64,000 bases of DNA from contig OZ024759.1 of assembly GCA_964016885.1 (NCBI GenBank), forward strand, positions 13,826,001 through 13,890,000. Direction: 5' to 3'. The DNA comes from Eledone cirrhosa (Eukaryota). The position numbers and the translations under genes were made by a program. Shown one piece after another: positions 11,768-39,800 of this stretch. Position 1 is the first letter of the stretch. Each line of letters begins with the position of its first letter. The notes under the pieces were generated by a model that had not been told where the DNA came from, did no database searches, and saw nothing but the letters and a program-made list of their open reading frames with translations.

Positions 11768-12113
11768 TATACATATATATATACATATATATACATATAC
11801 ATATATATATACATATATATACATATACATACATATATATACATATATATATACATATATATACATATATATATACATATATATACATATATATACACAT
11901 ATATATACATATATATACACATATATACATATATATACACATATATATACATATATATACACATATATATACATATATATACATATATATATACATATAT
12001 ATACATATATATATACATATATATACATATATATATACATATATATACATATATATACATATATACATATATATACATATATATACACATATATATACAT
12101 ATATATCATATAT

Positions 12114-12172
<59 letters not shown>

Positions 12173-13824
12173 CATATATACATATACACATATATATATA
12201 CATATATATATACATATAAATATACATATATATATACATATAAATATACATATATATATATATACATATATATACATATATATATATATACATATACATA
12301 TATATATATTCATATATATACATATATACATATATATATATACATATATATATACATATATATATATATACATATATACATATATATATACATATATGTT
12401 CGATATGAAGAAAAGGAACTGGCATAAATTCTATAAAATGCACACAATGCAGATCCTGGGTACACAAGAGATGTAGCGGGATAGCAGGTAAACTAACAGG
12501 TAGGGAGAAATATGTGTGCAGTAGATGTACAGGGAAATTAGACAGTAGAAGTCGGATTGATAGACATGTTTTTCAAATGCAAGAGGGCGCTATAGAAGTG
12601 GTGGATAGCTTCCGGTACCTAGGAGATCAGATTAGCATGGGAGGAGGGTGTTCCGAGGCGATAGTATCTAGAATAAGGAGGGGTTGGAAGAAGTTTAGGG
12701 AGCTGCTTCCTCTGTTGACGAAGAAGGGTTTCTCCCTGCGTACGAAAGGCCGGTTGTATGATGCCTGTGTGAGGAGCGCGATGCTGCATGGTAGTGAGAC
12801 ATGGGCAGTAACTGCAGAGGACATGCGATGGCTGGAGAGAAATGAGGCAAGCATGCTCCGTTGGATGTGCAGTGTAAATGTGCGTGTACGACCCAGCATA
12901 AATGTGTTGAGAGAGAAACTGTGTCTGAGAAGGATAGAATGTAGTGTACGGGAGAGGAGACTGAGGTGGAATGGACATGTGATGCACATGGAGGATGACC
13001 GATGGGTGAAGAAGTGCCAGGAATTGCCAGTTGAAGGAAGACGTGGTAGAGGTAGACCACGAAAAACATGGACGGAGGTGGTGAGAACAGACCTCAGATC
13101 ATTGAAGCTCACGGTGGAGATGACGAGGGACTGTGACGAGTGGAGAGATGGTGTGCTGAATAAGACCCGTCCCACCCTTGCAAGTAGGGAAAAGCGGACG
13201 TAAAATGATGATGATGATGATGATGATGATGATATATATATACATATATATATATATATAAAATAGAATTAGAATTTAGCTTTGAGCATAGTTGTATACA
13301 GATATGTATTGGAATTTTGTATTTCTAAAGAAATGTGGTATGTTTATAAATAAACATTTAGAAAGGCATAGCTATGCAAATACACCGGCAGCTATCAGAA
13401 CCTGGCGGTGTCGAGCAGAAGCAAGGGGGACGATCATCAATGCATTTCGGACAGAACTGGTTCTTGTCAGGACGATAGCTCCCACTCATGCAACTGCTGG
13501 ACTTTGAAAACAGACAAGAATATATACCTTGCATTTGGGACCTACATGAAAATATACCCAGTACACTCTGTAAAGTGATTGGTGATAGGAAGGGCATCCG
13601 GCAGTAGAAAACCTGCCAAACGAAGGGTTGGGAGGACCCTTCAGTTGTGTCAAAGACAAATTCTCCTGTGCACTCGGTAGAATGTTATACCATACATAAG
13701 TGAGATACAGACCCCAGACCCCACTGACATGTCAGGGAGGTCAGTAGCTCTGCTTCAGTACTGACATAGTCAATGTAGAGCCATCCAACCCTTGCTAGCA
13801 GGGAAAGCAGTTAAAATGACGATG

Positions 13825-13856
<32 letters not shown>

Positions 13857-14576
13857 TAAAATAACAGATTAAAGTTTAAGCAAAGAATCAACACCAGGAT
13901 TCTTTGCTTAAACTTTAATCTGTTATTTTAATAAATATTTGCTTTACGGTTCTTATATATTTGATATATATTTATCCTTATCGAGCCCTCTTTGGATTTT
14001 AGTCTTCAAATTTATTATTATTACTATATATATATATATATACATTATCATCAGCCACCTAGAACCAACAACTGTAATTGCTGGCCCCCTGTATCATAAA
14101 ATCTTTGAAGTAGTTTGAAATTGTTTGTTTAAATATTTTATATCATCTGACAAGCTCAGGCTGAGAGATTGGGTAGGAAGAACATTCCCTAGTCATCGAT
14201 TCCAGCAAAATATATATCATGTATATAGAAATAACCTTACATACAACTGCTTATGGCTTTCACTGTATTTAATATTCTCTCTCCCTCTCTATGTATATAT
14301 ATCCCTCCCCAAAACATCTCTCCGCAAGTCCCCAGCCTACATATATGTGAAGGCGCATGGCTTCATGTATGTACATAGCTATGCATTTATACATTTGTAT
14401 ATATACATGCATTTATATTTAAGTGTGTAAGGATGTTGACATGATTTTTTTTGGTAAGGAGTAAATTTTTGTCTCCAGATTTTATTACCTAGGGAGATTA
14501 AATACCACAGCTCTGGCTGAAAGCTGACCAGGTTCTCAACCTCATCAAACACTAACGCCGGCCGGTGTGTATATAC

Positions 14577-14642
<66 letters not shown>

Positions 14643-17600
14643 GTATGCATGCATGTGTGTGTATGTTCGTATACACCCACACCTTTCACCACCATTGCTT
14701 CTTTTTGTTGTCATTTCTGTTGAAGTTGTTCTTGTAACTGTTGTAAAAGTTGACGTCCTTATTTTCATTTTCTTTGATTTCTTTTGTTTTTCTTTTATCC
14801 CCATAAGGAATTTGGGCATACGTCAAAACGGGCGGTCAGAAAAGTGAAAGTAAATTTATTTTGATTTTCGAACGTCGTGTTTACATTTTGTGTGTGTGTT
14901 TAGATCTAAATTAGTGTCGTTTTAACTGATTATATATATATGTATATGTGTGTGTGTGTGTGTAGTTGACGGTTGAGAGAAGACTACTCAACACCGAAGT
15001 AATCTTGTAATGAGGCTTGCACATGCTGGCGACGAAGCTTCTTCTTTGCACGGCTCCATGTCTTCTATATGAGCTGTGTGTGCACATCAAGGTCCGCAGG
15101 ATCTACAAAGTTCCGTTCGTGCACCACAACATCATGAACGTAAATCCCACCTTCAATTTCCAAATAGGAAGCCCAACCATCGGAGATGATGCGGCTGCCT
15201 GGCAAAATCCCTGCTGAATGATGGGGACGAGAGAGTCAGAGCTTCGATTTGGGACTTCTACAAGGCAGCAGCGTCCAGAATGGCGGACTCACCATTCTGC
15301 AAGCCTCATTACAAGATTACTTCGGTATTGAGTACTCTTCTCTCAATCGTCAACTACACACACACACACACACATATACATATAATCAGTTAAAACGACA
15401 CTAATTTAGATCTAAACACACACAAAATGTAAACACGACGTTCGAAAATGAAAATAAATTTACTTTCACTTTTATGACCGCCCGTCTTGACGTATGCCAG
15501 GAATTCGTTGACAAGCTTCTTTTATTTATTTTCTTTGTTTTCTTCATTCAAATGCATTCACACTGGCGGTCGAAGAGACGTACACATATGACTTATAAAT
15601 CTTACCAAACTAAAGGGACTTCCAGTGCACCTCCAGCACCCCCAAATCATCAAACGCCCCCCTAGAGTTACAAAACGCGTCGGGAGTTGAAGTGGTTATG
15701 ATGGCGACGATATAGCGGAAGAGCAACTTTGAAAAAAAGTCAATTTTAAATTATTTATTTTTACGAAATTGAGTAGATAAATTATGTAATATTCATTCAT
15801 AAAATAAAGTACCAGTAATGCACTGAGTAATTGCTGGCCTTGTGCCTAAAGTAGAAACAATTAAATTGCTGGCCTTGTGCCTAAAGTAGAAACAATTATT
15901 TATTCAAAGTAATCCAACTTATTTTACAAACGTGATAAAAAATAATAACCGTACGCAATCCCACAGACCTTTCTTTATTATAGTTTAGATTTACTATTAT
16001 ATTTTCATGGTAAATACTTTATTTCACATAATTATCTCACATAATATTGAATCTATGAGATTTTAGTATTATTTATGTTGAGAACAATACCTTAATATGA
16101 GTACAACTGGTTTAACTGGTTTAAACAGAAAAAGGTGAGAGAATTCTGGCCAGATATGGCCGGTTTAAATGCTAAAGGGTTAAGCGGTAACCCTTATGTT
16201 GAGTCAGAACCAACTGTAAACTGAGAGTCCTCAAACCATGTTACTCAGACTTATAAACTCAAGTAATAGAAACTGATTACTAGTATACCTATATATACAG
16301 GCTGTCCCAAAAAATGTATACACAGTTTGATTAACTGTACAGGCAATATTTATTAGAATGCACAGCTTTTTTGTATACATGTTTTTGGGACACCCTATAC
16401 ATATGATTAAGAAGAATTGAAATTAATGCATAGATAATTTCACAGCTCTAGCATCACTCCTTCATAGCCAGCCTATGAATGTTTCAGCTCAACCTCGTAG
16501 ATGTGGATATCGATAGTAATTTTGAATGTTAAACAGTTAAAGTAAAATGAAATATACTTACAGGAACTGGTAGACTCCTTCTCAGATAAGTCCTTAAATC
16601 CTGGCAATATTAGGTAATAATAGTGGCGGTGGATTGGCAGTATCGGTAGGGGGTCGGACGCCATGCTTTGATGCATAGAGTTACGGCCCTTTCCATTCCG
16701 AGTTCAAATCCCGCTGAGGTTAATTTTGCCTTTCATCCTTATGGCGTCAATAAAATAAAGTACCAGTAATGCACTGAGTAATTGCTGGCCTTATGCCAAA
16801 AGTAGAAACAATATTAGGTAATAAAATTCCGTTTAAAGTGAAGTTTATGTTGTTGGTCTTGCTTAGGGGATCCAGCCAGATAAATTAGAGACGGTTGCTT
16901 CTAACAGGACCCACTCCCTGGGGAGACGTGTTGGAGGACTCTCCCCTCACGACTATTGTAGGAATGAAAAGATGAAGAAGACAAGATGTGTAAACCACAC
17001 ACAAAAGATGTGTAAACCACACACACAAGGTGTGTAAACCACACACACAAGGTGTGTAAACCACACACACAAGATGTGTAAACCACAAACACAAGATGTA
17101 AACCACACACACAAGATGTGTAAACCAAACACACAAGATGTGTAAACCACACACACAAGATGTGTAAACCACACACACAGGATGTGTAAACCACACACAC
17201 ACGTGGCAGTATTCAATTTTCACATCTCAGTGTTTGTGAAATTTGTTTTGGCTGTTAAAGTTTGTGAAGAGATCAAATGTTGTTTAGAGTGTGTAACTGG
17301 AGATAAACTGTAAAATTGAGATGTGTTGTTGTTGGTAAATAAGTTGCATAGCTCTTCTATATTTGCTATAGATAGCTTGTGGTCAACAGTTGTTTAATGG
17401 CGATAGTTAGGTGCGGGTCAACAGTTGTTCTATTGTGGTTATAGTTAGCTTGTGGTCAACAGTTGTTTAGTGGCGATAGTTAGCTTGTGGTCAACAGCTT
17501 GTCTATTGTGTATATAGTTAACTTGTTGTCAACAGTTGTTTAGTGGCGATAGTTAGCTGGTGGTCAACAGTTGTTCTATTGTGGCTATAGTTAGCTTGTG

Positions 17601-20600
17601 GTCAACAGTTGTTTAGTGGCGATAGTTAGCTTGTGGTCAACAGCTTGTCTATTGTGGATATTGTAGTCAAAATTGCTTAATTATAATGTACTTTACTTCA
17701 TTGACCACACAGTTTGTCCACAAAGAAGACTGTATGTCTGTTGAAAGCCCACAGAGAAAAAGTGTAGACAAAATCCACAGAGAAATGTACACAGAATCCA
17801 CCCAGACGACGTGTATGAAAAAAGCCTGTAATAAACAAACAGAATGGTTGGAAACGACTTCCTTTTATAAGCTCTAACAGAAGAGTCTGTTTTCTGTGGA
17901 GTTCATTGGTAGAGTTACTTACTCCTGAACAGATATAAATTTGGCGAACCAGGTTCAAATTCTGCAACAAGTAGTTCAACAAAAAATATTTCATTTTTTC
18001 TTCCTTTTAATATTGTTTTATTTTTATTAGAGGCATACGTCAAGACGGGCGGTCTGGAATGTGAAAGTAATTTTTGACACTGAATTTTTTTTTATTTTTT
18101 TTAAACAACAGGTCTCAATAGTGTAATTTACGATACACACGCAATTGTATGGATTTCTTTATATATATATATGTGTGCCCGTCTTGACGTATGCCATATA
18201 TATATATATATGTATGTATATTGAAAGATTACTAAAAACTGGACATCGATTGATATTAGTTAGATGTAGCAAGGGCTCTGTGTATGGCGAGGACAGAAGT
18301 AGACTTTTTAAATAACTATATATATAACTATATATATAACTATATATATATATTACCTAATATATGAAGGCGTGTGGCGGAGTGGTTAGAGAATTGGATT
18401 CGCAATCATAAGGTTGTGAGTTCGATTCCTGGACCAGGCGATGCGTTATGTCCTTGAGCAAGACACTTTATTTCACATTGCTCCTTCTACCTGGAGTTGC
18501 GACCGATAGATAGTATTAGCAATTGGAAAGACCAACGGAAACATTGTTCCCTCGGTCCGATTCGACGAAAGTCGATCGTTCCTATATAAATATATATTAG
18601 ATATTATAATTCGGTTCTTCCTAGTTAGACGTTCAAACGATGTAATAGTATAGGGTTTGTTTTCTCATAGTTCTGACTTATAATGATGTAGTGAGAGACA
18701 GTAGATTGTAAACAAATATATAAAGAAAAACACACACATTATATATACATATATATACACACATATATATATACATACATATATATATTTATATATATAT
18801 GGCATACGTCAAGACGAGCACATATATATATTAAGAAATCCATACAATTGCGTGTGTATCGTAACTTACACTATTGAGACCTGTTGTAAAAAAAAAAAAA
18901 AAAAATTCAGTGTCAAAAATTACTTTCACTTTCCAGACCGCCCGTCTTGACGTATGCCTTTATTAGATACTGCTCAATAATTTTGATGTAATTATAATTA
19001 TTATATATGTGGAGGCACATGGCTTAGTGGTAAGTGCATTGGCCTTGCAATCGAAAGGTTGTGAGATCAATTCTCAGACCGAGTGATGTGTTGTTTCCTT
19101 GAGCAAGACACTTTATTTCACATTGCTCCAGTTTACTCAGCATAGAAATGAGATGATAGGACTGGAGTCCCTATAATTCCAAATGAGGTTGGTGTTAGGA
19201 AGGGCATCCAGCTGTAGAAATCAAGCTAGAATCAGTTCCCGTCCCACCCTTGCAAGCAGGGAAAAGCAGACGTAAACTGATGATGATGATGATGATTATA
19301 TATAGCATCATCATCATCTTCGTTTAATGTCCATCTTCCACGCTAGCATGGGTTAGACGGGAGTTGTCCCACTTGAGGCAAGGTAGGTCGGGTGACCGTG
19401 TCTCGCTCATATAGGACTATCAGACAGGTTTTCTACGGCTGGATGCCCTTCCTAACACCTACCACATTTACAGTGTGGAACTGGGAACTTTTTACCATGT
19501 TACCTACACGGCCACATTACAGTGTGGACTGTGTGTTGTTTTGTTGTGACACCTACACGATCTTGATCTCAATCTCATTATTTCATTTATTTGGACTGGA
19601 TGTTGTGGTACCAACTTTACAGAGAGAGGGTGGTGTTGGTGGAAGTGGGAGGATATGGTAGGGATAGTGGATTGAGGTGTATATTTGGTTAAGAGGTGCC
19701 TACTCACTGTAGGTTTCGCTTTGTACATAGGCAAGGCGGGTCTTTTGTATTAATGGGTAATCTCGGTCCAGTGACATTGTCTTAGAGAAGTGTAAGGTCG
19801 GAATTTATCAGATCATCCCAGGTTTTTCCATCAATTTTGATTGCCCTGCACTTTTTTATATATCTTTCATGCGCATCACATAACCATACCAACGTAGTCT
19901 TCTCTCAAGTAAACAGCATCTGATCCCTCTTATTCCTAGTTTCTCACTTAGTTCATTTATGCTTTGCTGTTCACATGTATTACTATTACACATCCAACGG
20001 AGCATGCATGCTTTGTTCCTTTCCAGTCTGTGCAGGTCCTCTGCACACAATGCCCATGTCTCACTGCCATGTAGCATTGCTGTTCGTATACAGGCATCAT
20101 ACAATCTGCCTTTCATTTTTAGAGAGAAACCTTTTGTGGCCAACAGCGGTATAAGCTCTCTGAACTTTTTCCATCCCGTTCTGACTCTGGCTATTGTAAT
20201 TTCCAAGCACCCTCCACCACTGCTGATTTTGTCACTGAGGTAACAGAAAGTGTCCACTATTTCTATAGAACCATCTGGGCAATAGTTTACCTGTGATCCC
20301 ACTACATCTTTTATGTACCCATAGTTTGCATTTGGGACATAAAAGAGAATTTCTGCCTACTCCTTTCCTACACACTGAGCATGGCCATTTCCCTGAGGGC
20401 ACTTGTGCCCTATTTTCCTTTCTACAAACTAGAAATTTTGTCTTAGACAAGTTAACTTTAAGGCCTTTTGATTCCAGGCCATGCTTCTATGTTTGGAATT
20501 TCTTCTCTAGTTCAGCCATAGATTCAGCTATGAGAGTTAGATCATCTGCGTATAGGAGTTCCCATGGGCAGCCGGTCTTAAACTCCTCTGTTATAGCCTG

Positions 20601-23600
20601 AAGGGCAATAATAAATAGGAGGGGGCTAAGGACAGAGCCTTGATGAACACCAACTGTTACACTAAATTCTTCTCAATATTCATTGTTAATTTTAACCTTA
20701 CTGACTGTTTCTTTATACATGGCTTGTATAGCTCTCACAAGCCATTCATCTACACCTAGTTTTCTAAGAGCCCACCAGATAATGGAGTGGGGGACTCTGT
20801 CAAACGTTTTCTCCAAGTCTACAAAAGCTAAGTAGAGGGGTTTACTTTTAGCTACTTCTCCTGTAGTTGTCGTACAAGGAAAAGAGCGTCTGTGGTACTT
20901 TTACCTGACACAAACCCAAACTGCATTTCATCTAGATTAATTGTGCTATAACTCTTTCTGTGACCTTCATGACCTGGTCAACTAACTTAATGCCTCTATA
21001 GTTTCCCCTATCTAGAGCAGGCCCTTTACCCTTGTAGCAGTTAATGATGATGATGCTATGCCAGTCTTTTGGTATGACTCCATTCTGTATTACTTGGTTT
21101 ACTATCCGGGTGACCATAGTGTGTCCCACCATTCCAGATGCCTTCAACATCTCAGCAACTATCTCCGAAGGCCCAGCTGCCTTGCCTGTCTTCATATCTT
21201 TGATTGCCTTACTTATTATACTACCTTTAACCTGCACTGCTGGACCTTCTATTGGATTGATTTGGGACAGACTATATTTTTCCCATTTATTCTCCTCATT
21301 TAATAGTCTCTCGTAGTGACACTTCCAAGCTATCTTCTTATCAGTATCAGTGAGGGAAAGTACACCATTATCATTATGGACACACTGCTCTCCGACAATA
21401 TCATGGTTTTCCTTGACACATTGTCTAGCAATCCTGAACACCTCACGTTTTTGGTCCTCACGTTGCTTGAACTTTTTATCCTCTGCTTCCTTTTTTGCAA
21501 GGTACACTTGTCTCCTAGCTTCTCTCCTGGCCACCTGATAGTGTTCTCTACCTTCCCCCATCCTGCCATACTTTTCAAGCCTGCTTTTTGGCCTTGATTG
21601 TCTCTTCCATCTTACTGTTCCACCACCAAGTTACTCTCCGCCTGCCAATAGGTCTGCTCCAGCCACAGATTTCATCCGTCGCTTTCAGCAGGTTCACTTT
21701 CAAGAATTGCCACTGTCTCTAATTGCTCTTCCTTATTGTCAAAGGCATCAAGTAATAAGCTTTTAAATTTATATATAAATATATATATCCAGGGAGTGTA
21801 ATAGAAGTTACTCTAGGTTCACCCAGGTGAGCACTCAATGTTTAGGTTCACGTCAGTGGCAAGATGTAAAGCTAGACAGAGTGTAATATAATAATTCAAG
21901 GATGATTTGTTAAGCCTTCATTATGTTTATTGATTGGTGATGTGCATTTTGCTATTGATCAACTCGTTGACCTCTGTTGCAGTCATTACTACAACAGAGG
22001 TTCGATGATCTTTGGAATCCAGAGTCGGGCCAGATCGATACACATCAAATCCTGAGCTGATCAATAGCGAAACGCACGTCACCAATCAATAAATGTAATT
22101 AAGGCTTAACAAATCATCCTAGTATTATTGTATATATATATATTGACAGTTGATCGACAAGATCCCAAACCTCATTTGCTTAACGAGTAGGGTGGAGCTT
22201 GTCAAATCAGACAGAGGAAACAATGTTTCCATTGGTCTTTCCAATTGCTAATGCTATCTATCGGTCTCGATCCTGTATCATGTCGATTGAGAGGTTCAGC
22301 TGAGCCAGGTCAGACTTTATCATTTCATCCACATCTTCCTGTCTTCTTCTTCCAAGGCACCCTACAATGTCAAGCACCCAACACCTTTTAATACATCTGT
22401 TATCCTTCATGTGCATCACATGTCCATACCACTACAGTCATCTCTCCTGCACACAGCATTTGATCCTTCTTATGCCCAGTTTCACTCTCAATTCATTTAC
22501 ACTTTGCTGTTCATGGACACACTAAAGTTACATATCCATTGTAGCATTTAGACTTCATTTCTTTCCAATCTCCATAGATCCTCGTCATTCAGTACCTATA
22601 TTTCACTTACTTGCTGTGTGCACACAGGCATCGTACAGGTTGTCTTTTAACTTGAGTGAGAAACATTTTGTAGTTAGCTGCAGCAGCTGCACCCTGAACT
22701 TTTCCATCCTGTTCTTACTATGGCAACTGTACTTTCGGTGTATCCAGCTTCGCTGCTGATATGGTTACCCAAGTAGTAGAAGCTATCAGCTAATTCTATG
22801 GAGTCTTCTGTGCATTTAAAGAGGGTCTTTGCTTACTGCCCCTGTGCAACAGCCACATATGATGTTTGTTTTGTGCTAGCCTGCCTGATTTCCCACTACA
22901 TTCTTGTGTACCCATAATTTGCATTTAGGACACTGGTTTGAGTTTCTACCTACTCCTTTCCTGCATACAAAGCAGAGCCATTTCCCTGAGGGTACTAGAG
23001 CCCTGTTTTCTTTTCTGCTTACTAGGATTTTGGTTTTTGTCAGGCTGATTTTAAGGCCTTTTATTTCCAAACTGTGCCTCCATGTCTGAAATTTCTTCTC
23101 TAATTCAGTCATAGATTCAGCTATGGGAGTCAGGTTGTCAGCGTATAAGAGTTCCCATGGACAATAAGCATTAAATTCCTCTGTTATAGCCTGTAGGATA
23201 ATAATGAAGAGGAGGGGGTTAAGAATGGAGCCTTGGTGGACCCCACTTGCACACTGAATTCCTCACTAGTCATTTTTAATTTTGACCTCTCCATACATGG
23301 CTCTCACAAGCCACCCATCTATACCTTGTTTTCTGAGGGCTCACCAGATTATGGAGCAAGGAACTCTGACAAAAGCTTTCTCTAAGTCTACGAATGCTAA
23401 GTAGAGTGGCTTGCTTTTAGCTAAGTACTTCTCCTGCATTTGTCTCACAAATGTATCTATTATTATTACTATATCTACTTAAAGCTACAAAACTACACCT
23501 GATGTACCCCTTCCCTATACATGCACACATGTATATCATGACTCATGCACTGTTCATTTTCCTGACGTTTGTACATTACCCTATACATACACATTTTGAT

Positions 23601-25258
23601 GAGTTGTAGTGCACCTGAGCACTGTACACAATATTTCATTATTATTATTATTATATATATAGAGAGAGAAAAAGTGGAATTGGAAATAGCACAAAAAGTA
23701 TATTTAAAGGATCTGTTTTTCTTTTTTTTCTTCTTTGATTCGTCAAAGTGACATTATCGAAAACATGAGAGGAACAGGTTTTTTTAAAAAAGGAGTTTTA
23801 TAATGTATATAAAATATATAAAATATAACTAGTTTCGATGTATCAGTGTAATCCATCTTATCAAATGTTGAATATTACAATTAAAAAGAATTAAAAATTA
23901 AAGATTTAAAATTAAGTGTTGAAGCAGGTTTGTTCACCTTTCTATATATATATATATATATAGTAATAATTGTTTCTACTTTAGGCACAGGGCCAGCAAT
24001 TACCCAGTACATTACTGGTACTTTATTTTATCGACCCCGTAAGGATGAAAGGCAAAGTTAACCTTGGCGGGATTTGAACTCAGAATGGCAAGGACCGTAA
24101 CTCTATGCGTCAAAGCATAGAGTCCAATCCTCTACCGATACTGCCAATCCACCGTAATAATAATAACTACAAAGACCAAAATCGAGATAAGACTCAATAA
24201 GGATTGTATATATATATAAACCCATAGAGCAAATATTTATTACTAGCTGGCCCGTCCGGCTGGCGCCCGTCTAGGTATACCAGCATTTTATTTTTTCAGG
24301 AATCCCCCCTACACTCCAGTGCAAAGGTACTGCATGCCCTCTCAAGTCAGCGAGGGGGGGGGGGGGGCGTTTAACGTGCTCTGATGTTGGGTTCGAATAG
24401 TTTTTAGGATTCCCCATTTCAGCAGCCAGTACGTAAAAGAAAATTGATAGTTACAACAATAAAGGCTGAACAGAGAACACATTTTTTAACAAACAATAAT
24501 TTGTACATCCATAATGGAAATTCCAAGTAACAGAAAATATTTAAATTACATTGTTAGAGCCTCAGAGTATACAATATTTTTTGTTCGGCTCTCCGGAGCA
24601 AAGATGAAGAGATTTTTTGGCAAGCTCACCCTAGAGCATCCTACATACAATTGACCATGGGAGAATCACTGATTTCATAGCTCGTCTCGCGGAGAGGCTC
24701 TGTAGACATTGACCTCTGGACACTCCTGTCAGGAGCAGGTAAGTTGTAGTGACTTAGAGGCCTACCACCAATCTCCAGGACACTGTTTTCAAGACAAATG
24801 AGCGCCTCATTGAAAACGACATCGTATGTTGCGTTTGGATGTCCTCAGCTAGACTTTCACGGTGGTTGTTCCACAGTTTGAGAGGGTCGGCGAGATCGCA
24901 GTTGTGCAGTATAATAGCAAAAAGTTTTTGCAGCTGAGAAGGGGCTTTAGCAGTTGCTGTTTCTTGCAGGGTGAGGTGCCAATGGCTGTCATCGTGTAAC
25001 ATACCACGCATCTGGCAAGCCAAACGGTAAGTGGAACATTGATGGAGGATGACCATTGGGTAAAGAAGTGCCAATAAATGCCAGTAGAAGGAAGACGCAG
25101 TCGAGGAAGACCACGAAAAACATGGGCGGAGGTGTTGAGAGCTGACCTCAAATCACTGAAGCTCACAGAGGAGATGACGAGTGACCGTGACAAATGGAGA
25201 GATGCCGTGCTAAATAGGACCTGTCCCACCCTTGCAAGCAGGGAAAAGTGGACATAAA

Positions 25259-25300
<42 letters not shown>

Positions 25301-27577
25301 ATGATGATTAAAATTTTAAGCAAATAATTTCTGCTTTCACCCTAAGTGGGATCATCTGAAAATATTTATATATACATATATTTTTTAGGATATCATAAAT
25401 GCTGTGAGAAATCAAAACACAGATGATATCAATTTAATCAATATGGGGTCAATACCAAAGATATATGCATGTGCTACAATGTGGCATGAAACAGAAAATG
25501 AAATGTTGCAGTTATTGAAATCTATTTTCAGGTATTCTTTATTTTTTCTGTTGGAGGTGTTGTGTTGCTATTGGTGGTGGTGGTTGAGATTTATAACATA
25601 TTAAAACCACTGTTAAAATGTTATAATGTATTAACCCTTTAGCATTTACATTACTCTATATATACTATTGTATTTTCATGGTAAAGACTTTACCTCACAT
25701 AATTATCTCACATAACATTTACATTACTCTATATTTACTATTGTATTTTCATGGTAAAGACTTTACCTCACATAATTATCTCACATAATATATGAGATTT
25801 TGATATTATTTATCTTGAGAACAATACCGTAACATCATTATAAGTGGCCCGTTTGAACAGAAAGAGGTGAGAGAATTCTGGCCAGATATGGCTGGTTTAA
25901 ATGCTAAAGGGTTAAAACCAGGAACAAACTTATAAGTTATAGCAGCGTTTTAGTTTTAACAGTTTTCATACTAAACTGCTTGCTTCTATAATACAAAACT
26001 GTTCATTTTGAAGTGTTTATATTTATCTAAAAATATTCCACCATATTCCATCAAATTTTTTATAAGAACATTTGTTAAGTTATGTTCCAAACACCACCTC
26101 AATATTACTAAATCCCTTTAAATTCTTGATTCATTAGAATTATGGTATTGAAAGGGTTAAAATGTTTACATTCAATCTTGCTTTTTACTTTTCTTACAGA
26201 ATGGATGAAGATCAATCCACGCGAACTTTCATGCGGAACACAATTGGTATTAATGACAGAGATTACTATGAATTTGAAGGTTCTTATTCTGTTTTTAAGT
26301 CTTTACATGTTTTTTTGTTTTTTTTATATATTTTTCTTTGGCTTATAATTTCATATTAGAAATAGAAGCTTTCATTGTATTTTTTTACTAAATAAATTTT
26401 AGCTTGATAGTGGGGTTTAGAACACTCTCAGAAATGGAAAAAGATGAGTATTGATGTACATAATTCATACTTTGTATCTCACATTGCTGTAAACCAGCAG
26501 TTCACAATCCCTGGTTGTCTGCAGAACTGAGATCTGTGAGATACGCTAAACAATTTCAGCTAGTTTGTGAAAAACATAATATATCCACACTCTTTTGGGA
26601 CTCTCTCACCTTATTATATTTCGTCATAATGACAGCAGGTCCTTCTTTGAGATAGATCATAGATTTTATGATAATTATGACAGGTCCTATGTTTTATCAT
26701 ATTGGTTGTAGGTAGAGGTGTAACTAGAGAAAATAATGCCTATGGCATGAAATTGCAGCGCTGCCCAAACATAATTTATTTAATGATCCAGCTAATATTG
26801 TGCTTCTCGCTTATGGTAGTTAAAAACCAACCATACATCTGAAGAAGTTTTTATTTTTTCTTCTCCTATTATAGCTTATATGACTTTAACCCTTTAACGT
26901 TTACATTACTCTATTATATATATTGTCATACAGCTAAGATAGCTCATGTATATTGTCCTACTACCAAGATATATCATATATATTGTCATACAGCTAAGAT
27001 ATATCATACATATTGTCATAAAGCTAAGATAGGTCATGTATATTATCATACAGCTAAGATATATCATATATATTGTCACACAGCTAAAATAGGTCCTGTA
27101 TATAGCTAAGATATATCATATATATTGTCAAACAGCTAAGAGGGTTCATGTATATTATCATACAGCTAACATATATCGTATATAATGTCATATAACTAAG
27201 ATATATCGTATATATTGTCATACTACCAAGATATATCATACATATTGTCATACAGCTAAGATATATCGTATATATTGTCATACTACCAAGATATATCATA
27301 TATATTGTCACACAGCTAAGATATATCATATATATTGTCATACAGCTAAGATAGGTTGTGTATTTTGTCTTACTAGTGAAGAAAGTCATGTATTTTCTTT
27401 TCATATTAAATGCAGGCCATATACTTTTTGACGATGCTTACAAACGAGATCACCATGGCAATATTCAATTTAATGAATATGTTGATTGCTTACTACGTTT
27501 GGTAGAGAAAGCAGGCAGGTAGGTTTGCTTCACTTAATGTTATGTGTGTATGTGTGAAGGAATATGTATGCATGTGT

Positions 27578-27636
<59 letters not shown>

Positions 27637-30600
27637 TATATATATACTGTATATATATATATATATATATATATCCTCCTCCTCCTCCTATCTCTCTCTC
27701 CTTCCTCCTCTCTCTCCCCCTCCTCCTCTTTCTCCGCTCTCTCTTTTTCTCTATTCAAGAGATATCCACGACAATGTGACTATTAAGAAACCAACAATAT
27801 GTGAAACACCATACGGAGACCGACTGGAATGGATCCTCCCTGGGGATAATAAGCTGGTAGCCCACCTCAAAGATAAAAATAGAATAAGACACAGGAAGCG
27901 ATGGAGCCAGGTAAAATCATATATTTATTGATTTATTGATTCAGAGAATCAGTAGAGCATCAAACAAAATATTTTGCAGCAGTTCTGATACTGCCTTTCA
28001 TTGTTCCAGGGTCAATAAAATATCAGTAATGTACTGGGGTTAATGTATTGGACATTCCATATATATATATATCATCATCATCATCATCATCATTTTACAT
28101 CCGCTTTTCCCTGCTTGCAAGGGTGGGACGGGTCTTATTCAGCACAGCATCTCTCCACTCGTCATGGTCCTTCGTCATCTCCACCGTGAGCTTCAATGAT
28201 CTGAGGTCTGTTCTCACCACCTCTGCCCATGTTTTTCGTGGTCTACCTCTACCACATCTTCCTTCGACTGGCATTTCCTGGCACTTCTTCACCCATCGGT
28301 CATCCTCCATGCGCATCACATGTCCATACCACCTCAGTCTCCTCTCCCGTACACTTCATTCTATCCCTCTCAGACACAGTTTCTCTCTCAACACATTTAT
28401 GCTGGGTTGTTCACGCACATTTACACTGCACATCCAACGGAGCATGCTTCTCCTCATTTCTCTCCAGCCGTCGCATATCCTCTGCAGTTGCTGCCCATGT
28501 CTCACTACCATGCAGCATCGCGCTCCTCACACAGGCATCATACAACCGGCCTTTCGTACGCAGGGAGAAACCCTTCTTCGTCAACAGAGGAAGCAGCTCC
28601 CTAAACTTCTTCCAACCCATCCTTATTCTAGATACTATGGCCTCGGAACACCCTCCTCCCATGCTAATCTGATCTCCTAGGTACTGGAAGCTATCCACCA
28701 CTTCTATAGCGCCCTCCTGCATCTGAAAAATGTGTCTATCAATGCGACTTCTACTGTCTAATTTCCCTGTACATCTACTGCATACATATTTCTCCCTACC
28801 TGTTAGTTTGCCTGCTATCCCGCTACATCTCTTGTGTACCCAGGATCTGCATTGTGTGCATTTTATAGAATTTATGCCAGTTCCTTTTCTGCATATCTAA
28901 CATGGCCATTTCCCTGACGGATTCAGAGTTTTGTCCTCTTTTCTACTCATCAACACTTTTGTCTTAGCTAGGTTCACTCTCAGTCCTCTTGCTTCCAACT
29001 GCTGTTTCCATAGCCAGAATTTATTCTCTAGCTCCTCTACTGATTCTGCTATAAGAACCAGATCGTCAGCATAGAGAAGTTCCCATGGACAGCCAGTCTT
29101 AAACTCCTCTGTTATGGCTTGGAGGACTATAATGAACAAGAGCGGGCTGAGGACTGAACCTTGATGTACTCCTACTTGTATCTGGAATTCCTCACTAAAC
29201 TCCATTCCTACCCTCACTTTACTGAGAGTACCTCTGTACAAAGTTTGCACTGTCCTCACAAGCCATTCCTCAACACCTAGCTTCCTTAGGGACCACCAGA
29301 TGACAGATCGGGGTACCCTATCAAAGGCCTTCTCTAGGTCAACAAAGGCTAAGTATAGTGGCTTATTTTTCTCTAAGAACCTCTCTTGCAATTGTCTCAC
29401 CAAGAAGAGGGCATCTGTTGTACTCTTCCCAGGCCCAAAACCAAACTGCATCTCATCTAGTTTGACCATTTCTCTAATTAGTTGTGCTAATATCCTTTCT
29501 GCCACTTTCATAACCTGATCCATCAGTTTTATACCCCTATAATTGCTCCTCTCCAGAGCATCCCCTTTACCTTTGTAGCAATTTATGAGAATACTGCTGC
29601 ACCAGTCTTTGGGTATGACACCACCATATATAGCCTGATTGATGTTGCGTGCAACCAGTTTAGTGCCTACGTCCCCTGATGCCTTCAGCATCTCAGCAAC
29701 TATTCTCGATGGTCCAGCACCCTTACCATTTTTCATTTCCCTAATCGCCTCTTGGACCCTATATTCGTCAATCTCAATAGCTGGTCCCTCTGTCGGATCT
29801 ACTAAGGGTAATTCCTCTCTCTCCCATTCGTTCTCCACATTCATCAGTCTCTCATAATGACATTTCCAGGCCTCCTTTTTCTGATCATTCGTGACACTAA
29901 GTACACCGGCATCATCCCGGACACATTTATCTCCAACAATATCCTGATTTGCATTGACACACTGCCTTGCAATGTGGAACACCGCACGCCTCTGATCTTC
30001 CCATCGCAGAACATTGGCAAACCTCCTACTCTCCGCCTTCCTGCGTGCTAAGTACACCTGACGTCTAGCTTCTCTCTTAGTGGCTGTATATTCTTCCCTA
30101 TTCCCACCCTTTTTCCAAGCCTTCCATGCTAGTCTTTTGTCTCTAATGGCCTTATCTACTGTGCTGTTCCACCACCAGGTCACTCTCTGTCTGGTTGGAG
30201 CTCTGCTCCAGCCACAAGTTTCATCAGTAGCCTGCAGCAAGTTGTCACATAAGAAATTCCAGTTATTATCTATGTCATACGTCTCTAAATCGACTTCTTT
30301 TTCGTCATATACATCTTGAAGGGCTTTCCTAAATTTGTATTTTATTGAAAGGTCTTTTAGCTTCCAGACCTTTCTTCTCCACATATATAAATGAAAATAG
30401 AGAAATTAATGTAAGCAAGAAGCCAACAGTAATTCAGACATATAAGTGACTTTAACATCAAGATGAAAAGTATTTAACGTAAGATATGGGAAAATAATTC
30501 AATCTTAATTCAAAACAAGTCAAGAAGAAAAATTTTATCCTCAGACTTTATATAAATTTTATCCTCAGACTACATATATATTTCCTTAGTAACCAAACTC

Positions 30601-33051
30601 CATCTGTTGCTATTTCCTTAGTAACCAAACTCCATCTGTTGCTATTTCCGTAGTAACCACACCCCAATTGATGCTATTTCCTTAGTAACCACACCCCAAT
30701 TGCTGCTATTTCCTTAGTAACAACACTCCATCTGTTGCTATTTCCTTAGAAACCACACTCCATCTGTTGCTATGTTCTATCTAGGTTATGTATATGTACT
30801 ATTTCCTTAGTAACCAAACTCCATCTGTTGCTATTTCCTTAGTAACCACACTCCATCTGTTGCTATTTCCTTAGAAACCACACTCCATCTGTTGCTATGT
30901 TCTATCTAGGTTCTGCATATGTACTATTTCCTTGGTAACCACTCTATCTGTTGCTATGTTCTATTTAGGTTATGTATATGTACTATTTCCTTGGTAACCA
31001 CTCTATCTGTTGCTATGTTCTATTTAGGTTATGTATATGTACTATTTCCTTGGTAACCACTCTATCTGTTGCTATGTTCTATTTAGGTTATGTATATGTA
31101 CTATTTCCTTGGTAACCACTCTATCTGTTGCTATGTTCTATTTAGGTTATGTATATGTACTATTTCCTTGGTAACCACTCTATCTGTTGCTATGTTCTAT
31201 TTAGGTTATGTATATGTACTATTTCCTTGGTAACCACTCTATCTGTTGCTATGTTCTATTTAGGTTATGTATATGTACTATTTCCTTGGTAACCACTCTA
31301 TCTGTTGCTATGTTCTATTTAGGTTATGTATATGTACTATTTCCTTGGTCATAAAATTGCCGCGTTGTCTGGCAGTGCAAAAAGGAAAACCCGAAGATTA
31401 CACAATACATTTCTGCTCGCTTTAGACGGGGATGTGGACTTTGAGCCATCGTCAGTTCTACTTTTAATAGACAGAATGAAGCGAAACCCTGTTGTTGGGG
31501 CTGCTTGTGGCAGAATTCACCCAATTGGGAATGGTAAGCTATTTTTGTTCTCTTATCTTTCAAAACAAAGATGTTTAGACTGAAGGTTAACTGTTTAAGA
31601 TGGGATACTGACTGAACCCACATCATCTTCTATCATCGTCATCAACGTTTATGAACCATTTTTCATGCTTGTATAGGTTAGATGGCAGTCACATGCTAAG
31701 GCTTGACTGGTCAGGTAACTAGGTCCTGCTCATACATTCTGTTTTGACTTGGTTTCTATGGCTGGATGCCCTTCCTAACACCAACCGCTTTACAGTGTGT
31801 ACTAGAAGCATATTATCATGACACCGACAATAACACATTTTCAGTAAAGTATATCAGTAGAGTATAGGCATTTTTATTGATGATTTATGAATGAAACTTT
31901 TCTAGTTCTGTAGAAGTCATTTCTATAATAAAACAAAGATATATATCATCATCATCAGCATCATCCCTGTTTAACGTCCATTTTTCCATGCTAGCATGGG
32001 TTAGACAAGTTGTCCCATTGTGAGACAAGCCAGATCAGATGATCGTGTCTTGCTCATATAGAACTGATTCTGGCTTGGTTTCTACAGCTTGATATCCTTC
32101 CTAACACCAACCACATTTTCAGTGTGGACTTGGTGCGATTTGTCATGGCACCTACGCGACTACTTTACAGTGTGGACTGGGTTCTTTTTGTTGTGACACC
32201 AACAAACCGCTTTACAGTTTCGGCTGAGTGCTTTTTATCACAACACCAACACGACCACTTTACAGAGTGGACTGTGTGCTTTTTGTCATGGCACCTACAT
32301 GACCACTTTACAGTGTGGGCTGGTAGCTTTTTTTCATGAGACCAACAAGACCACTTTACAGGTGGACTGGGTGCTTTTTGTCATGGCACCTACACAACCA
32401 CTTTACAGTGTGGGTTGGGTGCTTTTTGTCACAACACCAACACGACTATTTTACCGGGTGGACTGGGGGCTTTTTGTCGTGCCACCTAAATAAACAAATA
32501 TCAATCTATATATTAGGACAATACAACAGTTTTATGACACTACAAATAGCAGAAAAAAAATCATTTAAATCTAAACAATGAAGAAGTAGCCAATATCAAT
32601 TAAAAATTATACATTTTCAGGCCCTATGGTGTGGTACCAGAAATTTGAATATGCAGTTAGTCATTGGCTCCAGAAGTCTGCTGAACACATGACTGGATGT
32701 GTTCTGTGTAGTCCCGGCTGCTTCAGCCTTTTCAGGGGCTCAGCCTTAGTAAAGCCTAATGTCCTGAAGAGATACACAACATTACCTACTGAAGCTAAAC
32801 ACCACGTACAGTATGATCAAGGTAATTATAAACACACACATGCAAATACACACACACACTCATGTGTATAGACATACACATGCACATTATTACATGCATG
32901 CACACATTTACACATATACATGCATACACCTACATATGTACACACATATGTGGAGACACATACATATGTGCATGTATCTATAAATATGTATGTGCATAAA
33001 TATATACACACATGCACACACATATGTATATGTAAATGTGTATATATATAC

Positions 33052-33091
<40 letters not shown>

Positions 33092-33730
33092 GGGATAACA
33101 AATTATCGTTATAGGTAATCCAGTTAGAGGTTGTGAATACTCCGTATTGTGGATAGTTTTAGTGTACAGCATTGTTTGACTCAACAAGAGGTTTCCTTAG
33201 GTAGCGAGTTTGTGAGTTCTCGGGAGTTCCTATGCAAGTTAATCTTGGAGTAATAATAGTGAAAGAGTGAAGGATATTTAAAATTGAGTGACACAACTTC
33301 AAGTGATTAGCAATTTTTAGACAACTTAATCAATGAAATAGTTGTTAATACTGTAAATAAAACCCTTTTTGTACTGTTGACCATGTTATTCTTCACTCTT
33401 TCACTATATATATATATAAAATAAGGGAAAGGTAATACAGAAAAAAATTTTAAACAAATTACCACCGTTTCAGATCCCAAAACAAATAGAAAGTCCAAGC
33501 GGATTTCCATTGAGAAGGAGATCCTCATCAGAAGGAGAATATAAAATCTCGGAGAATATAAAATTGCCGAGTTCAAAATACAAAACTGCCCCAGCAAATG
33601 AATGATGAAACAATTTTGTCTAGTATCATGTGCAAAGACTGACTGAAAGCAAGGTGGACAGGTCAATCTCTAAAAATAACAGCTGTTCAAATGACCAAGG
33701 GTTTAATTATTATATATATATATATATATA

Positions 33731-33790
<60 letters not shown>

Positions 33791-36641
33791 ACAATGAGTT
33801 ATATGGTTTGTTGATTATCTTTCAACAAAGTTAATTTTATAACTAATTTGAAGCACTCTACAGTTTTTATCTGGAGTATTATTAATATTAATAATATTAA
33901 TAAATGGGAAATATCTTTATAATACCATATTTATTTTATTATACGTATTTCAAGGACACAAAATTTTAGTATGCTTTCATCAGATAAAATATAATATTTG
34001 GTGTTAATATACCTTAGGCATAGACTTAATAGTATAAGCTCGTTAACGGCAGTGAGGTAAAAATTCAAAATCACAAGGGTTATAAGTTAACAAGTATACA
34101 CTAAAACAGAAAAGGACCATTATTATAGGCGCTAGAAAAATTTTGAAAAATATATATATATAGGAAAAGAGTCACATGTACGTGTTGCTGGTTCGAAGTC
34201 CCAGGTGCGAGAGAGAGATTTTCTTCAAATCTTCGCGGGTAATTTCTCTCTCAGGACGCGTAGGGATACATCCTCTTCTGCTGGCGCTGATTGGCTGAGC
34301 TGAGCTAAATCACGCACAGAGAATGCATGTGAGCCCGCGGAATGTAGGTCACTACACTGCCCCATATTGGTCACCAATAGAGTGAATTGGTCACAGGGTT
34401 ATTTACTTTGGTAAACGCCACTGCAGGCCAACCACTAATTAAATTCGATACAGATATAATAAGGTTAACAAACTTACTCGTGAGTGAACTGACCGAGAGC
34501 CGGTCGCCAAATAATCAGCATGGTAAATTAAATGTTATTGAGACACGAGTAACATAATAATGATGTCAACAGCAGAAATTAGAGATGAAATGTATGTTAT
34601 TTTTGTTGTAGCACAAATAATGTTGGTTAACTTGTATGGTTGAAGACATAAAAATGAGGTTACAAAAGGGAATGTGTCATTGCGCCGGAAAGTCAGCAGG
34701 TTAAGGTGCAAAATCTCACCGTCACATGTATGTGTTGCTGGTTCGAAGTCCCAGGTGTGAGAGAGAGATTTTCTTCAAATCTTCGCGGGTAATTTCTCTC
34801 TCAGGACGCGTAGGGATACATCCTCTTCTGCTGGCGCTGATTGGCTGAGCTGAGCCAAATCACGCACAGAGAATGCATGTGAGCCCGCGGAATGTAGGTC
34901 ACTACAAATTTATTTGCTATAACATATGTTTCTGTATTTATTATAAAATGTTCAACATATGCTGACTACAATATATATTGTTCAATCATATGCAATACTT
35001 AATTATTTATTCCACTTCATCAAAAACCCTATAATAGTGGAATTCAACTATTTACTACATTTTTGTTTGATCAGGTGAAGACCGGTGGCTGTGCACCCTC
35101 CTACTACAAGCAGGCTCTCGTGTCGAGTACTGTGCAGCATCAGACGCCTTGACATACTGCCCGGAAAGTTTTGATGAGTTCTTCAAGCAGCGCCGACGCT
35201 GGGCTCCATCAACAATGGCTAACATCATTGATCTATTGATTGACTGGCGCCATGTTCGTGAAGTCAACACCAGCATCTCTTTGCCATACATTATTTACCA
35301 GTCTGGTTTGATGATCGTCTCAATCATAACACCGGCAACCATCTTCTTGCTAATTGTTGGGGCTTTAAGTGCTGCTTTTCCTACAATATCCCTGACGTCT
35401 TCATTAATTGCCAACCTTGTTCCAGTTATAGCCATGCTCATCCTATGTTTTATCGCCACAGAAGACACGCAAGTACGGATTGTCACATGTTTCTATTCTT
35501 TTACTATTTCACTGTGTTGCTTTTTACACTACTCCATAAATTTGCTTTGTTGTGGTTGTTGTTGTTGTTCCTCTTCGTCTTCCTCTTCTTATTCGTCTTC
35601 TTCTTCGGATGCCATGCTTTGCAGCATAGAGTTACAGTCCTTTACGAACTGAGTTCAAATCCCACCGAGGTTAACTTTGCCTTTCATCCTTACGGGGTCG
35701 ATAAAATAAAGCCCCAGTAATGTACTGGGTCGATATAATCGACTTTCCTCTCCTCCAAATTACTGGCCTTGTGCCTATACTAGAAATTATTATTACTATT
35801 ATTATTATTATTATCATTTCGCTTTTGCATCATGGTTTTTACCAGAGAGATATAAACTAACATTCCATACTCTTGATGCTTCAACTTGCTCAACAAGGGC
35901 TTTATACAGATTAAAGTGTTATCTGACCTCTCTGCATCACAAATCATTTGTAATAAAGGTCCTCATGCACAATTCTTCCAATAGTGTGCCTCAAAACCGT
36001 GAGCTCCTTAACAATGGTGCTAATCGACTTTCTGGGGTACTTATTGATAATTTTCTGCATCTTTCATATGAATTTGGGTGTTCTGATGGTATTAGGACAC
36101 TTAGCAGGCATTTTATGTGTGGTTATTGTTGTAGAATATTTGTCAATGATTTCCAGCATTTCACAAACATTGACAAGAAATAACTGTGCAACTTTCAGGA
36201 AATGAGAATCTCTAAATCCTTCTGCTCTACCTTTAAGGTAACAATTACAGCGTGCCTTTTCATTGGTTGATTTAGCTTGCTGTCTGTCATCATTTATCTG
36301 AAAAGAAATGATATTCTGAACAAGCCTAGCAAAAAGTTAGAGCTTAACGGTTCAAATTATCCTTGGATAACTATCCAAGGATAACTTGAACCGTTAAGGT
36401 ATATTCTCCTTGGTTATGTCAAAATTTATAAAACACACTTTGTATTTTATCTGATGATAGCGTACCAAAATTTTGGTACCCTTGAAATATATATAACAGA
36501 ATAAATGTGGTTTTATAAATATAGTTTCCATTTATTTAATATCATTGTATATTATACTCCAGAAAACCTGTAGAGTGCTCTGAATCAGTTATAAACATTT
36601 ATATTTGTTGAATTACCAACAAATTGAATATCCCTTTCGCT

Positions 36642-36705
<64 letters not shown>

Positions 36706-36766
36706 AACAGAAAAAATTAAACGAAATTTCATTTCTCACTCTCAGTACGGCTGTTACGTATACATA

Positions 36767-36825
<59 letters not shown>

Positions 36826-39800
36826 TATCGAGAATCGGAACCTCGGCCCACGAAATAACGAAACACAATCTTCGAAATGTGTGGCAAAGTGCTCAATAGT
36901 TTGGATAAACCAGAGCTATAACTAACGTTTAAATAGCAACACACTGAGACGATGCTTAAACAATCATTCGCACAACCGAAAACACGACCAAGAAAATTTG
37001 GGTCAGAAAAATAAAAATATATATGATATATATATATTTATGTATATATATACATACATATATATATATATATATATCATCATCATCATCATCATCATTA
37101 TCGTTTAACGTCCCTGTTCCACGCTTGCATGGGTTTGGACAACACATCACCCGGTCTGAGAATTGAAGACCGGGTGATGTGTTGTTTCCTTGAGCAAGAC
37201 ACTTTATTTCACATTGCTCCAGTTTACTCAGCTGTAGAAATGAGATGATAGGGACTGAGGTCCCTATCATTCCACTGCAAAGTGGTCGTGGAGGTGCCAC
37301 AGCAAAAAAGCACCCTGCACTCACTGTAAATGAGGTTGGTGTTAGGAAGGGCATCCAGCTGTAGAAATCAAGCCAGAATAAGTTCCCGTCCCACCCTTGC
37401 ATATATATATATACATATATATATACATATATATATATACATATATATATATACACATATATATATATACACACATATATATATATACACCCATATATAT
37501 ATACATATATATATGTGTGTGTATCATCATCATCATCATGTTTAATGCCTATCTTCCATGCTAGCATGATATATATATATACATATACACACATATACCT
37601 ACATGCACCTATTTTATTTTTGTTTTCCAGTTGAGATTTGCCTCCTTACTAACACTATTTTATACTCTAACAATGATGCTTGTCTTTGTCGGCTTGATGA
37701 AAGAAATAATTGAGTATAAGTTCTGTTCGACAACAGCAATATTCTTCACATTTGTTGCCAGCATATTTCTCTTATCTGCATTGACTCATCCTCAAGAATT
37801 CAGCTGTATTTTACATGGACTTCTGTACTTCCTCTTTGTACCTTCCACTTCCATCCTCCTCATGGTTTATGCATTGGGAAATCTTCACAATATTTCCTGG
37901 GGAACAAGAGACACCAAACCCGAAGTTTCAGTTGAACCGGTAAAACCTGTACCTGATGTCAAGAAAAAGAAGACAGCTTTTAATCAACTGTCAGGCATTT
38001 TATGGTCAACTGTTAATTCTAATAAGGAAAAACAATCGGAGTATACTTTTTCTTGTGGAAACCTCTGTCAATGTCTCTGTTTGCCGAAAGAGAAATCAAA
38101 CAAAGAGTTAACACTCCTGACAAAAATAATGGGAAAAATTGAAAACTTCACAAATCCAAAACCCTCAACAATAGCAACTTCGGAAGAGAAATCTTCCTTG
38201 TTATCTTCAGCTAACAATGAAGAAAATGCTGAGAAAGAAAAGCAAGAACTTACGAAGCAACAAGAAAAGGCTCAACAACAACAGGAAACACAACCAGTAC
38301 AACAGCAGCCACAGCAACAACAGCAGCCACAGCAACAACAACAACAGCAGCCACAGCAACAACAACAGCAGCCACAGCAACAACAACAACAGCAGCCACA
38401 GCAACAACAACAACAGCAGCCACAGCAACAACAACAACAACAACAGCAACAAACGCAATGCTACATTCGTCGTACAGGTATAGTGACATAATTCTATTTA
38501 TACAAGGCTGTCATAAAGTTGCTACAATTCCATCCCATACTTCAAAATGGTTAACTCCCTTAGAATTTCATATGATGAGATTTGGTGAGTTCAAATCCCG
38601 CCGAGGTTAACTTTGCCTTTCATCCTTACGGGGTCGATAAAGTACCAGTAACGCACTGGGTAATTGCTGGCCTTGTGCCAAACGTAGAAATAATTATTAT
38701 GGTGGATTGGAAGTATCAGTAAAGGGTCAGACGCCATGCCTTGCAGCATAGAGTTATGGACCTTTACATTCCGAGCTCAAATCCCGCCAAAGTTAAATTT
38801 GCTTTTCATCCTTACAAGGTTGATAAAATAAAGTACCAGTAATGCTCTAGCGTAATTGCTGGCCTTGTGCCAAAAGTAGAAACAATTATCATAAGAGAAT
38901 TGTTAAATTTGATTTAACGTCAGGGGAGTTAACTGTTGTTAGGTTACTGGCCAAAAGTGTAATGTGTATGGATATCTTTCTTCAAGTTGTCTTAAATGTG
39001 AACAGCTGGTTTTTTTTATACTCATTTTCTCCTTTTATCTACCGTTTATTTCACTTAAACATTGATTTGATTGTTTTATGTTCTTTTTATTATTCAGATA
39101 GCAAAAATAAACCCAAGCACTGGCTGGAACATGAATATGTCAAAGATCTGAAACCAGGAAAGATTTCCAATAACGAACAAATATTTTGGAAAGAACTTAT
39201 AAAACAATACCTTTTTCCGCTTCAAAAAGATGAGAATAAAGAAAAAGCAATGCTAAAAAATTTGATTGAACTTCGTAACAACGTCTGTCTGGCATTCTTT
39301 ATAATAAATGCCTTATTTGTTACGGTTGTATATGCCATTGAATATAATATCCAAACCAGTAATGTCATCAGTTTGGAAATACCATGTGATGGTGCTTCAA
39401 AAAAGGTGAATGTCATCTCATTTGTCTTTACACTCGTCTTTGGTTTCTCGCTCGTTATTCAATTGATTGCTATGTTGTTCCATCGTTATGGTACATTCAT
39501 GCATATCCTATCAACAATTAAGTTGACGTTCATGCCAGTCAACAAGGAGACTGTAGATCAGTGTCGCCTGACCTTGCTTTCAAGAAAGCTCAGCAAAAGT
39601 GACAGTAATGTAACAACCTGCTCTGTGGATAGTTTTTCTACTGATTGGAAGAAACTGCGAAAGGAAATGCCGAAAAATTGGAGGAAAAGGAAAACTTCAA
39701 ACCAGTTCAAAAATCTTCAGGAGAAGGTTGAGGCAAAATTGGTTGAAATAGTGGACGAGGTTGAAAATCCAACACTAGAAACTAAGACAAACACATTTTC

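Follow-up and report, generated by a model that had tools for sequence, protein, structure and literature searches.

Minisatellites that span exon-intron boundaries, known as mirages, have been described in lancelets. According to two reports (PMC3087553, PMC3902484), they occur in Adh3, in the globin genes BflGb6 and BflGb9, in troponin C, and in PGBD5, where they carry AG and GT splice signals and leave splicing undisturbed as judged by RT-PCR. Comparable duplications are known from human genes. In the CBS variant 844ins68, the cited text reports use of the distal acceptor and a normal mRNA (PMC2630376), with G runs between the two acceptors steering splicing to the distal site (PMC1802585). 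On the donor side, the 37-bp VNTR of F7 intron 7 presents five to nine identical sites, and the cited portion of that study reports that only the one at the normal exon is used (PMC1557585). Finally, RS-exons of recursive splicing are described as having an AG|GT followed by a second donor nearby (PMC8605326). Our search of the open-licence literature (PMC, bioRxiv) found no published mollusc case of a mirage-type array.

Here we describe an array of this kind in an octopod. The window, a stretch of 64,000 nucleotides of Eledone cirrhosa (GCA_964016885.1, contig OZ024759.1, positions 13,826,001 to 13,890,000, forward strand), contains what reads as an intact, octopod-like chitin synthase gene; the enzyme presumably serves in the beak, the radula, or structures of the gladius type. 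The exon ends of our 13-exon model were set by hand from tblastn. The modelled product retains all of the catalytic motifs (CATMWHE, LDGDVDF, QKFEY, EDR, QRRRW, SWGTR) and is 56% identical to an O. bimaculoides protein (P0005) over 1720 columns. The array precedes and enters exon 9, which is 80% identical to its counterpart in Octopus vulgaris (P0003) and 79% identical to that in O. bimaculoides (P0005), the highest values among the 120 matches listed. The join of exons 8 and 9 is conserved as RWSQ|VMYMYY. Among the best 120 matches of each of two exon 9 protein searches (628 and 282 matches), there was no transcript-derived protein of the same species, and top identity was 80%. The features are as follows, in window coordinates:

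4236..40581, + strand: whole chitin synthase gene, 13 modelled exons, 1813-aa open frame, start codon assumed
27760..27910, + strand: exon 8, with a phase 0 end at RWSQ; the 3412-nt intron 8 starts from its donor
30579..30738, + strand: five 32-bp units, each a 12-nt exon-like motif plus 20 nt of intron, without the acceptor block; TRF period 32
30739..30799, + strand: degenerate 61-bp unit with a decoy acceptor, exon-like start at 30785
30800..30863, + strand: two more 32-bp units
30864..30924, + strand: second degenerate 61-bp unit, decoy exon-like start at 30910, two substitutions
30925..31337, + strand: seven identical 59-bp units, with perfect decoys at 30969, 31028, 31087, 31146, 31205, and 31264 plus the real acceptor at 31323
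31289..31322, + strand: 3' end of intron 8 before the real exon, with a predicted branch A at -31, a short pyrimidine tract, and AG
31323..31533, + strand: exon 9, 211 nt (VMYMYY...LDGDVDF...GRIHP), of which the first 27 nt are the copied part

Several other features of the gene were observed. The exon 6 donor, AAG|GTTCTT (26277-26285), is unusually weak in the model, at 5/9 by a crude consensus count. A proline/glutamine-rich 30-bp coding repeat in exon 1 (4341-4559) and a polyglutamine-rich coding tract in exon 12 (38273-38452) are both unaligned to the O. bimaculoides protein. Introns contain reverse transcriptase ORF fragments, which we take to be from an RTE-like LINE, at 28897-30405 (-) in intron 8, 12409-13203 (+), and 19856-21630 (-).

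A single array runs from 30579 across the exon 9 acceptor, and its 32-, 61-, and 59-bp units form one family. When cut at their common 12-nt motif, the units follow in the order of five of 32 bp, one of 61 bp, two of 32 bp, one of 61 bp, and seven identical ones of 59 bp, which lead directly into the exon. An earlier note on this DNA had placed the start of the array at 30770, behind an upstream 31-bp satellite; both statements need correcting, as the satellite is the 32-bp part of the same array. Periodicity at 59 bp is perfect from 30917 to 31349, TRF on 30738-31349 returns a period of 59 with 10.2 copies (score 975), and a 21-nt unit pattern has 16 matches in the window, all within 30578-31298, compared with none in 100 shuffles. 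What each 59-bp unit repeats is the last 34 nt of the intron together with the first 25-27 nt of the exon, without variation. The acceptor block is present in 9 of the 16 units (eight decoys plus the real site) and absent from the seven 32-bp units. Exon-like starts after AG thus lie at 30785, 30910, 30969, 31028, 31087, 31146, 31205, 31264, and 31323, each opening with GT (AG|GT); every one of these positions, including the degenerate 30785 and 30910, agrees with what had been noted before, as does the perfect 59-bp repeat. It had also been claimed that every decoy ends in G|GTAACC, which holds for seven of the eight but not for the one at 30785 (A|GTAACC). A transcript joined at the real acceptor would continue as GGTCATAAA, and one joined at a decoy as GGTAACC. 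The seven units adjoining the exon are identical, and those at the far end have diverged.

Short reads indicate that the repeat is real. We examined four of the seven listed runs on 31225-32100, which covers two units, exon 9, and the downstream intron. Both runs examined from sample S1 (X1 and X3) yielded an exact 89-nt contig at 31261-31349 with 0 mismatches, a length (59 + 30) that denotes a 59-bp cycle at 31-letter words. Depth of this cyclic contig was 23.5 in X1 and 54.3 in X3, versus 4.53 and 14.5 for the single-copy contig at 31320-31769. The resulting ratios to flank were 5.2 and 3.7, or 4.1 +/- 0.8 when pooled, versus 6.8 expected from the assembly; the error is a rough Poisson estimate with an assumed read length, and contig depth is not a copy number. 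The tandem junction is therefore present in DNA in several copies, with seven being the assembly count. Since X1 and X3 may derive from the source sample of the assembly, the repeat is shown for that DNA and not for other individuals. In another sample (X4), the contig starting at 31289 was 260 nt long and showed no loop, but its depth of 2.3 is too low to be informative, and a RAD-seq run (X5) had zero depth on 31225-31644. In the downstream intron, a high-copy element predominates and crowds the joint and loose-end tables. Separately, contig depth in X1 and X3 was about double that of the flank over 31345-31404 of exon 9, perhaps reflecting an allele or a close paralogue. It could be argued that the array was made or much inflated by the assembler: its seven units are perfectly identical, short-read depth suggests about 4-5 copies rather than 6.8, and none of the listed pieces spans it. 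Yet the earlier note had named raw reads as the check for an artefact, and the exact cyclic contig at several times flank depth, found in both S1 runs, together with the structured 32- and 61-bp variants upstream, makes this explanation very unlikely. A modest over-count of units is possible and would leave our main reading unchanged.

The array resembles the lancelet mirages in four structural features. Its tandem unit spans the intron/exon boundary, as in BflGb6, which is likewise reported to copy the 3' intron end and exon head. Splice signals occur in a good part of the units though not in every one (here 9 of 16), and unit lengths of 32, 59, and 61 bp fall within the reported 10-160 bp (PMC3087553). 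Furthermore, a homogeneous core is flanked by divergent outer units, in the manner of concerted evolution. In contrast, the host is a mollusc rather than a cephalochordate, and the array is a composite of 32-, 61-, and 59-bp units; for the lancelet mirages, normal splicing and length polymorphism are reported as demonstrated. CBS 844ins68 likewise duplicates a short stretch (68 bp) across the acceptor junction of an intron and exon, but it has one extra copy compared to eight here; CBS-type G runs are absent, with 0 GGG in 30579-31349. The F7 VNTR is likewise a minisatellite across an exon boundary with identical splice sites, although it lies on the donor side, where the first site wins, while the last is predicted to win in the array described here. 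With recursive splice sites as described in the cited text (PMC8605326, PMC6224609), the decoys have in common the AG|GT and, after it, a short pseudo-exon that is out of frame and ends at a second donor 25 nt on. They differ in a weak rebuilt donor that is set by a Val codon, in their repeat origin, and in an intron that at 3412 nt is not long. Nor is there conservation as a splice element: the GT, which 33 of 37 homologous loci have (best 80 of 182), belongs to the Val codon. Finally, intron gain by tandem duplication, as outlined for the Rogers model (PMC3265369), also involves a duplicated AG|GT that is removable by splicing, but here an existing acceptor was copied inside an existing intron and no new intron arose.

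The internal structure of the array hints at how it may have formed. At its left edge, 11 of 12 bases agree with +16 to +27 of the exon, and the 61-bp spacing is that of the older unit; no other 11/12 match was found among 63,216 plus-strand positions outside the array. The differing base of the 12-nt motif is A in nine of nine upstream units and G in seven of seven proximal ones. Under the proposed sequence of events, a first 61-bp duplication would have occurred between two near-identical 12-nt motifs, followed by the 32- and 59-bp variants and a recent homogenisation of the seven units beside the exon. Microhomology-seeded expansion, as proposed earlier, with crossovers between two motifs that were already there, is compatible with the edge match, but a truncated exon-derived copy explains the match equally well. 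The head of exon 9 also contains a 13-nt run of alternating purines and pyrimidines, the longest of 12 exon heads (others 4-7), which is a possible seed for slippage, a suggestion that draws on two events.

Such arrays are not confined to this gene copy. We compared the best 80 of at least 182 homologous loci, all metagenome contigs, of which 77 were parsed and 3 were not. The intron position was present in 37 of the 77 (27 clusters). Among these 37 intron-bearing loci from the best 80 of 182, the exon starts with GT in 33 and an upstream copy is absent in 35. An acceptor-spanning array occurred in one of the 27 clusters (best 80 of 182), namely in two loci with 85% identical flanks, where 42-bp units cross the same acceptor in 7 copies (L044:1201-1512) and 22 copies (L062:551-1512). 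Their exon is 87% identical to a beetle protein (P0099), marking an insect-type gene. Because the 42-bp array shares only the exon head with the unit in the window, its origin was separate. Four of the 11 head copies detected in L062 keep the AG, and three of those four are in frame and stop-free; none of the six in L044 keeps it. Being frame-preserving, the L062 array could not serve as the same decay switch. As a donor-side control, a 26-bp array repeating the donor was found in one of 26 clusters (best 80 of 182), with 4.5 copies running to the contig end (L051:1540-1656). The frequency of junction-spanning arrays at homologous junctions is thus a few percent (best 80 of 182 loci), and such frequencies are likely lower bounds given that short-read contigs break at these repeats. 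A second array at the same junction exceeds what a uniform process requires, albeit with n = 2.

The local supply of minisatellites is also large. About 10 arrays, picked by hand from TRF output, lie in the 36-kb gene span, and with 10 arrays we put the crude chance of one source unit spanning a splice site at 0.34. Minisatellites abound in this genome. Downstream of the gene, for example, there is a perfect 48-bp array at 53815-54310 (10.3 copies, 100% matches) and a 3.6-kb array of 23-25-bp units at 57445-61055. Four of eight intronic minisatellites end no more than 150 nt upstream of an acceptor (4968-5092, 26912-27353, 30579-31322, 32103-32488); this proximity (P about 0.01 under a within-intron null) was noticed post hoc and includes the array itself. 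With mirages already described, arrays recurring, and the L062 array preserving frame, the earlier suggestion of an unusual or regulatory device is not supported.

Which acceptor is used matters for the product. A full-length protein is obtained only through the acceptor at 31323, and all eight upstream acceptors lead to a premature stop. Translation bears out what had been worked out by hand: the decoys from 30910 to 31146 reach a TAA in the third unit, and those at 31205 and 31264 meet a frameshift stop within exon 9. The decoy at 30785 ends at a TAG at 30872. Decoy products would end at 796-820 aa, with the stop 108-659 nt ahead of the next junction, on exons of 270-749 nt; the long internal exons in this gene range from 398 to 911 nt, so exon length alone does not exclude the decoys. 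It had also been proposed that each decoy defines a 25-nt pseudo-microexon, but the donor this would require is weak and coincides with the next branch point. Specifically, for each following acceptor, and for the real one as well, the best candidate for a branch point is found at -31, within a GTAAC (5/7 to the consensus), and the same GTAAC resembles a weak donor (5.5/9, crude count). As a result, a 34-nt intron inside one unit is not workable, and we judged the microexon route unlikely because donor and next branch point use the same bases. Inclusion of one or two 25-nt pieces would truncate the protein (785 and 817 aa), and inclusion of three would restore the frame (1838 aa).

Since the acceptors are locally identical, the choice among them must come from outside the unit. 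We propose selection by downstream context, in which 31323 would be favored as the only acceptor that has the whole of the purine-rich exon body after it and the donor of exon 9 at a distance of 211 nt. Purine fraction is 0.53 in the unique exon body versus 0.36 in the unit. Exon definition would thus favor 31323; after a decoy, 27 nt of exon lead straight to the next branch point and its acceptor. Experiments with duplicated acceptors provide partial guidance. For a globin substrate carrying a duplicated acceptor and a short stub of exon, distal over proximal use was 25:1, or 6:1 if splicing was coupled to transcription, a result ascribed to a stub without enhancers (PMC1450099). Another study reports exclusively distal but very inefficient splicing with stubs of 14, 55, or 205 nt (PMC5389562), and with such inefficiency the array may carry a real cost. 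Use of the proximal copy was found in an early study of a globin duplication, as cited in PMC1557585.

RNA structure was considered as the selector and rejected, as the real acceptor is no less covered by predicted hairpins than the decoys are. The array has a fold z of -2.6 (1 of 100 shuffles as good) and single units have z of -1.7 to -2.4; an Rfam search gave 0 matches. Neighbouring copies of the exon head are predicted to pair at 31268-31337 (z -2.4). A-to-I editing is extensive in this lineage, and such paired copies could be an editing substrate at the exon head or at the AG.

The evidence is best explained by a mirage-type minisatellite that copied the junction of intron 8 and exon 9, likely as a product of slippage or unequal crossover, and that is likely near-neutral, with the last acceptor predicted to be used. 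We hold this reading to be probable. Use of 31323 is likely, judging from the open reading frame and the mammalian and lancelet analogues. The earlier view that the last acceptor is selected stands as the likely outcome: the frame is intact only via 31323, and the duplicated-acceptor studies and CBS favor the distal site. A minority of transcripts may be spliced to a decoy during transcription, acquire a stop, and undergo nonsense-mediated decay, which would be a small cost and not a function.

Alternatively, the share of decoy splicing could grow with the number of units, so that nonsense-mediated decay would make alleles differ in output and expose array length to selection. The premature stops of all eight decoys, well upstream of a junction, fit this idea, but such stops follow automatically from a 59-nt unit. 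With a single decoy, coupling of splicing to transcription is reported to have brought the proximal share up to 1 in 7 (PMC1450099), and the pooled depth of 4.1 +/- 0.8 versus 6.8 could reflect two alleles of different length. Against this, the upstream units have decayed or have no acceptor block, the parts of the lancelet reports cited here describe mirages without aberrant mRNA (PMC3087553, PMC3902484), and the 42-mer arrays behave otherwise, with three of four AG-bearing decoys in frame and stop-free in L062 and none of six heads with an AG in L044. We therefore regard regulation by copy number as unlikely. A related scenario allows decoy splicing to correct itself. Joining exon 8 to a decoy would rebuild a donor (CAG|GTTATG) that could be re-spliced to a later acceptor, restoring a normal mRNA. 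The AG|GT with a weak donor 25 nt on matches the RS-exon anatomy (PMC8605326), and the rebuilt donor scores 6/9 by crude count, compared with 5.5 for the decoy donor and 5 for the real donors of exons 2 and 6; moreover, the Drosophila exon junction complex is described as appearing less able to repress recursive splicing (PMC6224609). Yet the rebuilt donor has no +5 G, the intron is 3.4 kb and not long, and the GT belongs to a conserved Val codon, with 33 of the 37 intron-bearing loci (best 80 of 182) opening this exon in GT. The same junction exists in normal mRNA; re-splicing there would cost exon 9 and leave a protein cut short at 790 aa, so the rebuilt donor must be mostly inactive. Self-correction of this kind is quite improbable.

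A broader combination is hardly more promising, and we consider it a long shot: a length-variable control of output with partial rescue by re-splicing, at a junction that would be a recurrent birthplace of arrays across phyla by way of its self-complementary 13-nt Met-Tyr-Met-Tyr head. Least probable of all is that decoys take most of the splicing and have effectively silenced this gene copy. Eight competing acceptors do lie upstream of the real one, and the predicted stem of neighbouring exon heads also encloses the real acceptor (z -2.4), but the 1813-aa frame is open with every catalytic motif kept, and the analogues are reported to retain normal splicing (PMC2630376, PMC3087553, PMC3902484).

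Our findings extend mirages from lancelets to an octopod. On the most likely reading, the array is one more minisatellite that spans a splice site, probably harmless and of little significance. Together with the arrays in L044/L062 and L051, it suggests that mirages touch a few percent of invertebrate junctions, which bears on genome annotation and on models of intron evolution. More generally, seven identical acceptors in a row are a natural substrate for a choice that the spliceosome would make by position only, the acceptor-side mirror of the F7 VNTR. If it were true that output tracks copy number, the array would be a mutable expression dial on chitin synthase.
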